Source: Coriobacteriia bacterium (GTDB taxonomy: Bacteria > Actinomycetota > Coriobacteriia > Anaerosomatales > Anaerosomataceae). From it: a DNA stretch of 24,000 nucleotides. The notes below the pieces were generated by a model, which ran no database searches, was not told the origin of the DNA, and saw only the letters and a list, made by a program, of their open reading frames with translations. This document shows, piece by piece, positions 21,375 to 24,000 of the stretch (its first letter is position 1; every line of letters starts with the position of its first letter). The position numbers were made by a program, and so were the translations under genes. Location of the stretch: contig JAUSBK010000001.1 in the NCBI GenBank assembly GCA_030652115.1, positions 34,254 through 58,253 of the forward strand, written 5' to 3'.

Positions 21375-21755
21375 GTGAAGCGCACCATGCTCGGCGGCAA
21401 GATCCACCGCGCCGTCGTTACGGAAGCCAACGTGGCGTACGAGGGCAGCGTCTCGGTCGACGAGGACCTGCTCGACGCCGCCGGCATCCTGCCCGGCGAG
21501 TTCGTCCACATCTGGGACGTCACCAACGCCGCGCGCCTCACCACCTACGCGATCGCCGCCCCGCGCGGCTCGGGCGCAATCTGCGTGAACGGCGCTGCCG
21601 CCCACCTCGTTGCTGCCGGCGATCTCGTGATCATCGCGTCGTTCGTGGAGCTCGAGGACGCCGAAGCCCGCGCCTGGGCTCCGCGCGCGGTGTTCGTGGA
21701 CTCTGCCAACCGCGCAGTCGAGGTCCGCGCCGAAGAGGCGTTCCGCGCGCACTAG
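21375..21755 (+). CDS. panD: Aspartate 1-decarboxylase (pyruvoyl-dependent)
   Basis: [62 protein letters not shown]..., with the self-processing Gly24-Ser25 site. It has a GTG start with GAGGGAG 8 nt upstream, and a TACAAT -10-like hexamer lies at 21304-21309. Confidence 0.95.
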
Positions 21756-21793
21756 CGCGTGCGGCGCCTCTCCGCTTCGGGTATCATCCCGCC

Positions 21794-21896
21794 GAAGGGG
21801 AGTAGCTGCCCGGCGTCGCAGCCGGGAGGCAGGCCGTCATCACGGGCATCCCGGCCCCGGCCCTGCTGCGCGGAACACCTCGCGTGCGAGACCTTC
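21794..21896 (+). promoter_or_regulatory. yybP-ykoY (Mn2+-sensing) riboswitch-like aptamer in the leader of the P2-type ATPase gene
   Basis: P1 is GAAGG (21794-21798) paired with CCUUC (21892-21896). The hallmark conserved strings are GGGGAGUAGC (21797-21806) and GCGAGACCUUC (21886-21896), compared with AAAGGGGAGUAGC ... GCAAGACCUUU in characterised members. There is a GC hairpin at 21806-21832 and a hairpin GCGCG-N8-CGCGUGC just before the 3' conserved string. The element ends 41 nt before the ATPase ATG. Confidence 0.7.
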
Positions 21897-21937
21897 AGGA
21901 TCGTTCGTGTCCTGACCCGCTGCGCACAGGAGGATGC

Positions 21938-24000
21938 ATGTCCAAACGGATCCCGCTCGACCCCGCGTCTCTCGACGGGGCCTTCGTCGTCGAAGCGGCA
22001 CACACCGTCCCCGCCGACGAGGTCCTCTCCCATCTCGCCAGCACGCCCGATGGCCTGACTGCCGATGAAGTCGCGCGGCGTCAGGAAGCGGTGGGCCCGA
22101 ACGAGCTTCCCGAGGGCGAGAAGCGCACCATCCCCGCGATGATCCTGGACCAGTTCAAGGACTTCCTTATCCTGCTGCTCCTTGGCGCGGCTGTGATCTC
22201 CGGAGTACTCGGAGAGTTGGCCGACACCATCGCCATCCTCGTGATCGTCATCCTGAACGCCGTCATCGGTGTGGTGCAGGAGTTCCGCGCCGAGCGCGCG
22301 ATGGAAGCACTTCGCGAGATGGCCGCCGAAACCGCCACTGTGCGCCGCGACGGTGTGGCCGCTGACGTACCCGCCGCCGACCTCACCGTCGGCGACATCG
22401 TGCTGCTGGACGCCGGGCGTGTGGTGCCCGCGGACCTGCGGCTCATCGAGTCGGCCGGCCTGCGCGTGGCCGAGGCGGCACTCACTGGCGAATCGCTGCC
22501 GGTGGAGAAGTACACCGAGGCCGTCGAGGGCGCCGACTCCCCCATCGGCGACCGCTCGAGCATGGCCTACCGCGGCACGCAGGTCGTCTACGGCCGTGGC
22601 GTGGGCGTCGTGACCAGCGTGGGTCTCGCAACCGAGCTCGGCAAGATCGCCCACCTGCTCGGCTCGACGGGCGACGTCAAGACGCCGCTGCAGAAACGGC
22701 TCGCGCAGTTCAGCAAGCAGCTCGGCCTGGCCGCCCTCGGGCTCTGCACGATCGTCTTCATCGTCGGCATGGTCCAGGGCGGCGACATGCTCGAGATGTT
22801 CATCACCGCCGTAGCCCTGGCGGTGGCCGCCGTGCCGGAGGCGCTGCCCGCGGTGGCGACCATCTCACTCGCCCTCGGCGCAAGCAGGCTCGTGAAGACC
22901 AACACGCTCGTCCGCAAGCTGCCGGCCGTGGAAGCGCTCGGCTCGGTCACCTACATCTGCACCGACAAGACCGGCACGCTCACGCTCAACAAAATGACCG
23001 TGGAGCACCTCGCCGCTGGCGACGCACAGACGATTGCCACCACAGCACTCGACGGCAGCGGCGAGGGTCTCACGTGGCTCGGCCGTGCGCTCGCACTCTC
23101 GAACGACGTCACCGGTAGTGACGACGCGCTCGTGGGCGACCCCACCGAGATCGCCTTCTATCGCATCGCCGCCGAGAACGGCTTCATCCCCGCCACGCTC
23201 ACCGCCGAGCTGCCGCGCTCGGCCGAGGTGCCGTTCGACTCGGACCGCAAGCTCATGACCACCGTGCACACGCTGCCCGACGGTGGGTACGTGTCGTTCA
23301 CCAAGGGCGCCGCCGAGGCGATCCTCGAGCGCTCGCGTGAGGCAATCGCCGCCGATGGCGCTCCCGTCGCACTCGACACCGACGCATCGTCCGCGCTGGT
23401 AGACAGCTGGTCGGCCGAGGGGCTGCGCGTGCTCGCGTTCGGCATGCGGCGTCTCGACACGCTGCCTGAGGACGGCAACATCTCCGCACTCGAGCAGGAT
23501 CTCACGCTCATCGGCTACACGGGCCTCGTCGACCCGCCCCGCGAGGAGGCGCGCGAGGCGGTAAGCACCTGCAAGACCGCCGGCATCATCCCGGTGATGA
23601 TCACCGGCGATCACCCGGCCACCGCGCTCGCGATCGCCAAGCGCCTCGGCATCGCGGACCACAAGGAGCAGATGATCACTGGCGTCGAACTCGACGCGCT
23701 CTCGCTCGAGGACTTCGAGGGCCGCGTGGAGGGCATTCGCGTGTACGCGCGCGTGGCGCCCGAGCAGAAGCTCAAGATCGTCCAGGCGCTTCAGGACCGC
23801 GGTGAGTTCGTGGCGATGACCGGCGACGGCGTGAACGACGCACCCGCGCTCGCCACCGCCGATATCGGCGTGGCGATGGGCATCACCGGCACCGACGTGG
23901 CCAAGGAGGCCGCCTCGATGGTGCTGTTGGACGACAACTTCTCCTCGATCGTGTCGTCGGTCCGCGAGGGTCGCCGCATCTTCGACAACATCCGCAAGTT
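21938..24000 (+). CDS. P2-type cation-transporting P-type ATPase (Ca2+/Mn2+-ATPase-like), first 687 codons; continues past the window end
   Basis: Absent from the ORF track because there is no stop codon in the window. My translation from ATG 21938 (AGGAGGA at 21928-21934) reads MSKRIPLDPASLDG...LTADEVARRQEAVGPNELPE (cation ATPase N-terminal domain), ALTGESLPVEK, AAVPEALPAV (TM4), [24 protein letters not shown] and [22 protein letters not shown]. It stays open to position 24000. Confidence 0.9.
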   Translation, partial: MSKRIPLDPASLDGAFVVEAAHTVPADEVLSHLASTPDGLTADEVARRQEAVGPNELPEGEKRTIPAMILDQFKDFLILLLLGAAVISGVLGELADTIAILVIVILNAVIGVVQEFRAERAMEALREMAAETATVRRDGVAADVPAADLTVGDIVLLDAGRVVPADLRLIESAGLRVAEAALTGESLPVEKYTEAVEGADSPIGDRSSMAYRGTQVVYGRGVGVVTSVGLATELGKIAHLLGSTGDVKTPLQKRLAQFSKQLGLAALGLCTIVFIVGMVQGGDMLEMFITAVALAVAAVPEALPAVATISLALGASRLVKTNTLVRKLPAVEALGSVTYICTDKTGTLTLNKMTVEHLAAGDAQTIATTALDGSGEGLTWLGRALALSNDVTGSDDALVGDPTEIAFYRIAAENGFIPATLTAELPRSAEVPFDSDRKLMTTVHTLPDGGYVSFTKGAAEAILERSREAIAADGAPVALDTDASSALVDSWSAEGLRVLAFGMRRLDTLPEDGNISALEQDLTLIGYTGLVDPPREEAREAVSTCKTAGIIPVMITGDHPATALAIAKRLGIADHKEQMITGVELDALSLEDFEGRVEGIRVYARVAPEQKLKIVQALQDRGEFVAMTGDGVNDAPALATADIGVAMGITGTDVAKEAASMVLLDDNFSSIVSSVREGRRIFDNIRK

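Follow-up and report, generated by a model that had tools for sequence, protein, structure and literature searches.

A probable yybP-ykoY-type riboswitch in the GC-rich leader of a P2A-type cation ATPase gene

Introduction

The window, a stretch of 24 000 nucleotides, ends inside a gene for a P-type cation pump. The leader of this gene raises the question of whether it belongs to the yybP-ykoY (Mn2+) riboswitch class and by which route it would control the pump. Activation of a P2-type ATPase by a Mn2+ riboswitch is established in Lactococcus and Streptococcus (PMC6649816). With this pairing already described in other bacteria, the present case is ordinary except that the standard RNA-family model does not detect it. 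The features of the locus are collected in Table 1.

Table 1. Features of the leader and of the 5' part of the pump gene, in window coordinates.
Feature	Position	Strand	Basis
Upstream complement of the P1.1 5' strand	21770..21780	+	lies in the promoter spacer
-10 promoter hexamer TATCAT	21782..21787	+	TANNNT comparison across leaders
yybP-ykoY-type aptamer (probable), four-way junction	21794..21896	+	R1 score, covariation, sub-threshold in-register RF00080 alignments of homologues
P1.1 5' strand GAAGG, partner CCUUC 21892-21896	21794..21798	+	helix 1
L1 5' strand GGAGUA, within the invariant GGGGAGUAGC	21799..21804	+	columns invariant, 45 leaders
P2 hairpin CCCGGC/GCCGGG	21809..21826	+	helix 3: 6/6 pairs change on both sides
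P3.1, 21828-21836 with 21858-67, C21861 bulged	within 21828..21867	+	helices 4-6
P3.2, 21844-47 with 21854-57	within 21828..21867	+	helices 4-6
L3 UCAUCAC	21837-21843	+	register against RF00080 consensus ACAUACU
P4 hairpin, 21868-73 with 21880-85	21868..21885	+	helix 7: 4/4 pairs covary
CCUC in P4 loop and 3' strand, proposed anti-SD	21878-21881	+	kept in clade-A leaders
L1 3' strand GAGA	21888-21891	+	columns invariant, 45 leaders
Hairpin UCAGGA/UCCUGA, two basal pairs overlapping P1.1	21895..21915	+	conservation
Spacer CGCAC 21923-27 and SD core GAGG 21930-33, proposed OFF-state partners	21923..21933	+	unconstrained MFE
Shine-Dalgarno AGGAGGA 21928-34 and start codon ATG 21938-40	21928..21940	+	N-terminus aligns with orthologues
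P2A-type cation ATPase, 901 aa, extends beyond the window end	21938..24000	+	Pfam, NCBIfam, structures, motifs

Aptamer architecture

The aptamer carries GGGGAGUAGC at 21797-21806 and GCGAGACCUUC at 21886-21896. The combined pattern GGGGAGTAGC-N70-90-GAGACCTTC matches once in the window, compared with 0.00 matches expected from 100 shuffles. GAAGG (21794-21798) is complementary to CCUUC (21892-21896), and both the signature strings and this P1 pairing lie where a sequence-only reading of the window had placed them. Between the end of the aptamer and the ATG of the P2A ATPase lie 41 nt, and all fetched homologues have the same layout.

Comparison of the homologous leaders yields a four-way junction formed by P1.1/P1.2, P2, P3.1/P3.2 and P4. 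In an alignment that was fitted to the model and so favours the structure somewhat, 93.7% of the cells are paired (31-51% in slid controls), 25 of the 31 pairs change on both sides and none of 500 shuffles is as good. For this covariation analysis a MAFFT alignment was replaced by a CM-based one because P2 and P3.2 were misregistered in the paralogue clade. P1.1 is paired in 99.6% of cells and four of its five pairs change on both sides, as in the swap to AGAGG/CCUCU in L040, L050 and L062. Judged from these aligned sequences, purifying selection evidently acts on all helices of the leaders.

The L1 strands flank P1.1, with GGGGAGUAG on the 5' side (21797-21806) and GAGAC on the 3' side (21888-21892). 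Invariant across the 45 leaders are GGGGAGUAGC, AGACC and the CA of L3. The latter residues, C21838 and A21839, align with the CA in ACAUACU, the RF00080 consensus of this loop. A21839 corresponds to A41 of the Lactococcus lactis aptamer, which contacts Mn2+ (PMC6649816).

Class membership

Rfam cmscan gave no RF00080 match in the 301-nt and 121-nt stretches, either at the gathering threshold of 45 bits, which the window leader does not reach, or at E <= 10, and an RF00080 search of the whole genome gave none either. The sequence-only reading had proposed this covariance model as its check, with a score below threshold counting against the class, and formally that is the outcome. We do not take the miss as a refutation because the model used omits the P1 3' strand and takes GGGGAGUAGC to be unpaired, so that it cannot score half of the core, and because it under-scores the whole lineage. 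Homologous leaders align to RF00080 over their full length and in register at a sub-threshold 11-26 bits. Among 61 related genomes the leader is conserved in 52, and an above-threshold RF00080 match occurs in just two; automated annotation therefore under-counts Mn2+ riboswitches in this lineage.

A covariance model built from ATPase leaders only (R1) scores 21791-21898 at 97.6 bits. It recovers RF00080 matches outside its seed (L031-L036 and L039) at 49-66 bits, and these precede genes of the GDT1/UPF0016 Mn-exporter family. On 20 kb of Escherichia coli its sole match is the mntP riboswitch, a validated member (38.3 bits, E = 4.5e-8). Each fetched homologous leader precedes a P-type ATPase gene (P2A), either an orthologue or a paralogue. 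Covariation, the reciprocal model searches and the recognition of mntP carry the case despite the missing Rfam match; the original assignment, a yybP-ykoY-type aptamer preceding a P2A ATPase, is thereby upheld, and the leader is very probably a genuine, GC-rich member of the class.

Mn2+ is the probable physiological signal. The aptamer might instead sense another divalent ion such as Ca2+, or its resemblance to the class might be that of a decayed, non-functional relic. The departure of L3 (UCAUCAC) from the Rfam consensus and one orthologous leader with a destroyed L1 (L030) would suit this alternative. Against it, the L3 of the L. lactis Mn2+ aptamer begins similarly, with CGUCA. The core residues of L1 and L3 are moreover invariant across the 45 leaders, and all helices are evidently under purifying selection. 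The closest solved relative of the pump is a Ca2+ pump, LMCA1, and Ca2+ is a ligand of the pneumococcal mgtA aptamer in vitro, but Mn2+ alone activated expression in pneumococcus (PMC6649816). Taken together, we regard a different ion or a relic as very improbable.

The pump

The encoded protein contains the Pfam domains Cation_ATPase_N, E1-E2_ATPase, Hydrolase and Cation_ATPase_C and the motifs TGES, DKTGT, TGD, GDGVND, VPEALP and NLVTDG, and its N-terminus aligns from residue 1 with its orthologues. TIGR01494 is matched with 335 bits (cut-off 62.3). The best NCBIfam model is the PMR1-type TIGR01522 at 709.8 bits, which is under the equivalog cut-off of 798.3; the pump was therefore filed as P2A and LMCA1/SPCA-like and not as a PMR1 equivalog. 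The closest structures are LMCA1 (PDB entry 6zhf) and SPCA1 (PDB entry 8iwp). From the riboswitch in front of it, the pump is most likely an exporter of Mn2+ and perhaps also of Ca2+. A long minus-strand ORF (21752-22654) was rejected as a gene, as it runs antisense to the conserved ATPase in GC-rich DNA.

Promoter and upstream complement

In all 48 leaders a TANNNT hexamer precedes P1.1, with its end 5-13 nt away (background 2.3%); positions 1, 2 and 6 are invariant and positions 3-5 variable. This -10 box is recognised solely through comparison with relatives. A consensus scan found no full -35/-10 promoter at the leader, and the -35 is therefore judged weak. An RNA loop was also considered for TATCAT and was rejected, as the T-A-N-N-N-T invariance across the 48 leaders argues for a promoter. 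Going by the -10 motif, transcription probably begins with the first base of P1.1, near 21793-21795.

The sequence-only reading had also noted that 21770-21780 can pair with 21792-21802 and had proposed that this pairing competes with the folding of the aptamer. The complementarity is real: ten of 11 positions pair (the mismatch is G21774/G21798), and the duplex reaches -19.1 kcal/mol compared with -11.0 kcal/mol for shuffles, of which two in 300 are as good. The role as a competitor is not supported, since the element lies in the promoter spacer, upstream of the conserved -10 box, and thus probably outside the riboswitch transcript, and since it is mostly at chance in relatives (above chance in only six of 25 close leaders and none of 23 others). 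The stop codon of panD is at 21753-55 and no terminator lies between panD and the complement, which would be transcribed only in panD read-through.

Expression platform

Downstream of P1.1 the leader contains CAGGA (21896-21900), UCCUG (21910-21914), the Shine-Dalgarno string CAGGAGGA (21927-21934) and the ATG at 21938. In 18 relatives the pairing of the small hairpin 21895-21915 amounts to 96.3%, and a single compensatory change occurs (L011); the hairpin reaches further into P1.1 in L009, L010 and L023. With 6 bp and no U-run it was rejected as an intrinsic terminator. The consensus terminator scan found no terminator-like site in 21600-22100 and a U-run is present in none of the 25 clade-A leaders, so that control is most likely translational. 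To this extent the proposal of the sequence-only reading, translational ON control without a terminator, is plausible.

Alternatively, folding of the aptamer could gate transcription, either through Rho-dependent termination or through a U-less hairpin that terminates or pauses the polymerase in the leader or early in the coding region. Most paralogous and canonical leaders of the same order do have intrinsic terminators overlapping P1.1, and the clade-A hairpin, which shares 2-4 nt with P1.1, resembles the remnant of a terminator stem. The empty terminator scan, the missing U-runs and the shortness of the hairpin speak against this route, which we consider improbable.

How, then, would translation be controlled? 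In the scheme of the sequence-only reading, UCCUG at 21910-14 is the anti-SD and toggles between CAGGA at 21896-900 (with Mn2+, leaving the SD free) and the CAGGA of the SD at 21927-31 (without Mn2+). All three strings are in place and can pair as claimed, the 5' hairpin is conserved, and the minimum free-energy fold of the window with just P1.1 forced, a noisy and uninformative folding, pairs the tail with the SD region. Nevertheless, the central U:A pair of UCCUG with the SD is broken in eight of 18 relatives (CCGGA or CUGGA) without compensation; 85.6% of cells are paired, with slid controls at up to 68.9%, and there is no covariation. The UCCUG tail is the partner of the SD in only one of 25 ensembles, with a probability of 0.00 in the window. 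The toggle also has no link to the ligand because nothing sequesters the 5' CAGGA without Mn2+. This part of the earlier proposal is not supported and is improbable. A somewhat better, although still unlikely, possibility is direct pairing of the GGAGG in the SD with CCUUC (21892-96), the 3' strand of P1.1, when P1.1 is open, as a translational analogue of the clade-B terminator. This pairing can form in 98.9% of cells in the 18 relatives and dominates six of 25 ensembles (L006, L014, L016, L018, L022 and L025), and the same complementarity occurs in clade-B terminators, where the 3' strand GGAGGUC pairs with GACCUUC. However, other constraints already keep both strands invariant, which leaves no informative variation, and a control slid by +1 already reaches 78.9%. 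The helix has just 5 bp including a G-U pair, competes with the conserved hairpin and has a probability of 0.00 in the window ensemble.

The partner that the folding points to is the 3' strand of P4/P1.2, where CGCAC (21923-27) can pair with GUGCG (21884-88) and GAGG (21930-33) with CCUC (21878-81). In the folding ensemble the SD of the window pairs with this strand with p = 0.66, and among 25 leaders there are 19 in whose unconstrained ensemble the SD pairs predominantly with an aptamer 3' strand. The pairing of spacer and SD is kept in 93.9% of cells in relatives, with one compensatory change (L023); the alternative helix reaches 94.9% pairability, and its two compensatory changes are a thin covariation among 18 closely related sequences. 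CCUC or CUCC on P4 is kept in 23 of 25 clade-A (terminator-less) leaders and in three of 23 others, counts that are not phylogenetically independent. With the full aptamer enforced, SD unpaired probability and RBS opening energy show no consistent difference between the states. The mean RBS opening cost is 6.5 kcal/mol (apo) versus 6.3 kcal/mol (holo), and for the window it is 4.3 kcal/mol (apo) versus 8.0 kcal/mol (holo), the wrong direction for an ON switch. We put the chance that CCUC and GUGCG act on spacer and SD as an anti-SD device at slightly under even.

Proposed mechanism

A yybP-ykoY aptamer that exerts translational ON control through its P4/P1.2 strands over a Mn2+-exporting pump is, as a whole, the best explanation and a reasonably likely one. 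The comparisons show the architecture of the aptamer, its conservation and its association with the pump gene; the ligand, the 5' end, the ON logic and the anti-SD partner are inferred. A sigma-A-type promoter with its -10 box at 21782-87 would set the mRNA start close to the first base of P1.1. Residues 21794-21896 fold as the classical four-way junction, in which a P1.1/P1.2-P2 stack lies beside P3.1/P3.2-P4, and the conserved L1 and L3 loops would form the metal site. When Mn2+ is absent, CCUC (21878-81) and GUGCG (21884-88) would hold the spacer CGCAC and the GAGG of the SD, with the small hairpin 21895-21915 at the tip of the SD-blocking helix. Stabilisation of the aptamer by Mn2+ would keep both strands in P4 and P1.2, and the SD would be released.

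In a more specific version, which we find doubtful, P4 itself serves as the expression platform of this terminator-less lineage: metal-driven closure of P4 together with P1.2 (and not P1.1) frees the RBS, and 21770-80 silences panD read-through. Here the P4 3' CCUC would be the anti-SD and the P4 5' strand (CGAG/GAGG-like) the anti-anti-SD, while 21770-80 would trap the P1.1 5' strand in panD read-through transcripts. If true, the leader would represent a translational form of the Mn2+ riboswitch, compact and abutting its promoter, that the literature searched does not describe for the class.

The association also suggests that, throughout an order of GC-rich bacteria, a pump otherwise described as 'Ca2+-ATPase-like' probably serves in Mn2+ efflux.

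Comparison with known systems

The mgtA leader of Streptococcus pneumoniae is similar in that a Mn2+-class aptamer with an L1/L3 metal site occupies the 5' leader of an LMCA1-like P2-type ATPase. There, the riboswitch turns on the PII ATPase MgtA (Mn2+/Ca2+), which protects against Mn2+ excess (PMC6649816). The mgtA aptamer has a three-way junction and an intrinsic terminator, whereas the present leader has a four-way junction, is GC-rich and scores below the Rfam threshold; it is without a terminator, and control is therefore probably translational. The L. lactis yoaB riboswitch, for which a crystal structure of the four-way-junction aptamer is available (PMC6649816), shares the placement of P2 on P1 and of P4 on P3, GGGGAGUAGC in L1 and the regulation of a P-type ATPase. 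It is a transcriptional ON switch with a terminator, in contrast to the present leader, which has GC-rich helices and an mRNA that apparently begins at P1.1.

E. coli mntP, recognised by R1, differs in that it serves an MntP-family exporter and not an ATPase, lies far inside a long leader and has a lower GC content (47%). Dambach et al. are said to have found in 2015 that this riboswitch acts on translation and not through a terminator.

A further comparison is with clade B, the leaders of paralogous ATPase and GDT1/UPF0016 genes of the same order (L026-L063, L031-L036). They share the aptamer architecture and the layout from promoter to P1.1, but have a classical terminator, GACCUUCGGCG...CGCCGGAGGUC-UUUU, that overlaps P1.1, and the sequence of their P4 can vary freely. 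With a terminator in the paralogues and no terminator together with a conserved CCUC in P4 here, the paired lineages offer a natural comparison of expression platforms rebuilt around a fixed aptamer.

The leader is a yybP-ykoY aptamer

The leader is present in 52 of 61 related genomes from 25 families of one order, and a P-type ATPase gene lies downstream of every fetched homologue, encoding either orthologues of the pump (clade A, 60-89% identity) or paralogues (clade B, 41-45%). Re-reading of the sequence confirmed the two signature strings, the P1 complementarity and the positions of CAGGA, UCCUG and the Shine-Dalgarno sequence (SD) proposed in the sequence-only reading. A search for both strings together (GGGGAGTAGC-N70-90-GAGACCTTC) gives a single match in the window, where shuffles predict 0.00. 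Among 45 distinct aligned aptamers (alignment A1), no variation occurs in GGGGAGUAGC, the CA of L3 or AGACC.

Features of the leader and its surroundings (window positions unless a locus is named)
Feature	Position	Remark
panD (aspartate 1-decarboxylase, PF02261)	21375-21755	stop codon 21753-55
Inverted repeat around the -10 box	21778-21791	
-10 hexamer TATCAT	21782-87	conserved hexamer 5' of P1.1
P1 5' strand GAAGG	21794-98	
Signature string GGGGAGUAGC	21797-21806	
Signature string GCGAGACCUUC	21886-21896	
P1 3' strand CCUUC	21892-96	
CAGGA	21896-900	
UCCUG	21910-14	
SD CAGGAGGA	21927-34	
ATG start codon of the ATPase gene	21938	
P-type ATPase ORF	L066:192-2894	from 21938, extends beyond the window end; 901 aa
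Convergent neighbour	L066:3297-4739	minus strand, just past the window end; 480 aa

A covariance model (R1) was built from the ATPase leaders only by imposing the classical four-way junction (P1.1, P1.2, P2, P3.1, P3.2, P4; 31 pairs). In the model-based alignment of 56 sequences, which is fitted to the structure and somewhat inflates the paired fraction, standard pairs occupy 93.7% of cells, compared with 31-51% when the partners are slid. Two-sided changes occur at 25 of the 31 pairs, and none of 500 shuffles reached the observed values. Compensatory changes are spread over all seven helices, for example from GAAGG/CCUUC to AGAGG/CCUCU in P1.1, and their number and spread are clear despite the structure-fitted alignment. 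One orthologous ATPase leader (L030:1543-1645, G036:C9; R1 score 43.7 bits) carries GAAGACGGUGC in place of GAAGGGGAGUAGC as the 5' strand of L1 and has probably decayed or become deregulated.

The check suggested with the original assignment, a search with the Rfam covariance model, was negative: Rfam 15 cmscan reported no family for the window with gathering thresholds applied. At E <= 10, RF00080 gave no match on 301-nt or 121-nt stretches, and a search of the whole 2.38-Mb genome gave none. In 60 related genomes it yields full-length sub-threshold matches (11-26 bits) that coincide exactly with BLAST homologues of the leader (G018, G047, G060, G012, G025, G015, G009, G046), with alignments in register across L1, P2, P3.1, L3 and P3.2. 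The scores are low because the model, of 177 positions, stops at the P4 hairpin, has no positions for the P1 3' strand (GAGACCUU) and marks GGGGAGUAGC as unpaired in the alignments. The Rfam test is weak for the present leader. Since RF00080 exceeds its gathering score in only two of the 61 genomes, against the 52 that contain the leader, the lineage is systematically under-annotated.

R1 matches the window at 21791-21898 with 97.6 bits. It also recovers, at 49-66 bits, full-length RF00080-found sequences from outside its seed (L031, L032, L033-L036, L039); L031 and L032 exceed the Rfam threshold, and L033, L035 and L036, the order's higher-scoring RF00080 matches, precede genes of the GDT1/UPF0016 family, a known Mn2+-exporter class. 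As an outside control, R1 was run with filters off on 20 kb around E. coli mntP, where the single match is the mntP leader over the full model (38.3 bits, E = 4.5e-8). Given this recognition by R1, the element is assigned to the yybP-ykoY class despite its Rfam score.

Within the genome of the window R1 detects the present copy alone, with no second ATPase leader. Many relatives (L026-L029, L038, L040, L047-L063) encode a further P-type ATPase, a paralogue with 41-45% identity, whose leader has this aptamer too, together with a classical terminator that overlaps P1.1. In G012 the ATPase leader (C16:147082-147173) has a GDT1/UPF0016-type leader (C16:152392-152554) 5 kb away.

Probable promoter and transcript start

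A TANNNT hexamer ends 5-13 nt 5' of P1.1 in all 48 leaders examined (5-7 nt in clade A; background 2.3%). Positions 1, 2 and 6 are invariant and 3-5 variable, as expected for a -10 box, and the mRNA is therefore expected to begin at about 21794. The strand 21770-21780 had been proposed to pair with 21792-21802 and compete with aptamer folding. Ten of the 11 positions do pair (-19.1 kcal/mol, compared with -11.0 in shuffled controls; equalled by 2 of 300 shuffles), but with this start the strand would sit in the promoter spacer, outside the riboswitch transcript. Among clade-A leaders the complementarity exceeds chance in just 6 of 25, and among the others in none of 23. A terminator scan detected none between the panD stop and the riboswitch; the strand could be relevant only to panD read-through RNA.

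The panD gene ends 27 nt 5' of the -10 box, a neighbourhood shared by the closest relatives (L002, L004, L005). The short inverted repeat recurs at the corresponding position of L002-L018 and L021, and both of its arms differ from lineage to lineage (CGGG-TATCAT-CCCG, CGGC-TATCAT-xGCCG, GTGGCG-TATCAT-CGCCAC, GATG...CATC); it might serve as an operator covering the promoter, or form a hairpin in read-through transcripts.

Expression platform

Leaders of clade B and of the GDT1 genes have a textbook terminator overlapping P1.1 (GACCUUCGGCG...CGCCGGAGGUC plus a U-run). No U-run is found in clade-A leaders, and the scan detected no terminator-like site in the window's leader region. Three anti-SD schemes were compared among 18 close relatives. 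The pairing of UCCUG with CAGGA (SD) proposed in the sequence-only reading fares poorly: 85.6% of cells are paired, with slid controls reaching 69%, the central pair is broken in 8 of the 18 without covariation, and in unconstrained ensembles UCCUG is the main partner of the SD in just 1 of 25 leaders. Pairing of the P1.1 3' strand with the SD fills 98.9% of cells and is uninformative because both strands are invariant; the L1/P1.1 3' strand is the main partner in 6 of 25 ensembles. In the remaining scheme a small hairpin forms and the P4/P1.2 3' strand pairs with the spacer and SD, giving 94.9% paired cells (slid 34-54%) and two compensatory changes; this strand is the main partner in 13 of the 25 leaders, with a pairing probability of 0.66 for the window itself.

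The P4 3' strand keeps CCUC/CUCC in 23 of 25 clade-A leaders, whose counts share ancestry, compared with 3 of 23 others; the motif persists also in L021, L024 and L025, whose P4 is otherwise divergent. Energy modelling of the cost of opening the ribosome-binding site did not separate apo from holo states. Weighing the pairing and CCUC evidence against these energies and the shared ancestry, we consider translational ON control in general likely and the P4/P1.2 3' strand only a tentative candidate for the anti-SD partner.

The pump and comparison with known systems

The pump carries the complete P-type domain set, with the motifs TGES, DKTGT, TGD, GDGVND, VPEALP and NLVTDG. Of the NCBIfam models, that for the PMR1-type Ca2+ ATPase scores best (709.8 bits, under the 798.3 cut-off), followed by the SERCA type, and among solved structures the pump is closest to Listeria LMCA1 and human SPCA1. 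In TM4 (residue ~300) VPEALP replaces the usual PEGLP, TM6 contains NLVTDG (~residue 724), and the TM8 position reads LSQMGH, with Gln where SERCA has Glu; these features could affect ion stoichiometry or selectivity. The convergent neighbour combines a divergent 4Fe-4S mono-cluster domain with CDGSH iron-binding zinc fingers.

Both the Mn2+ riboswitch class to which the leader is assigned and the type of target that it controls are already known. Pumps of this class are turned on by the Mn2+ riboswitch of pneumococcal mgtA, whose expression is activated by Mn2+ and not by Ca2+ (PMC6649816). Together with L. lactis yoaB and E. coli mntP, S. pneumoniae mgtA is the nearest precedent; the present leader is set apart by the absence of a terminator, the failure of the current Rfam model, its GC-rich four-way junction and an mRNA expected to start at P1.1 itself.
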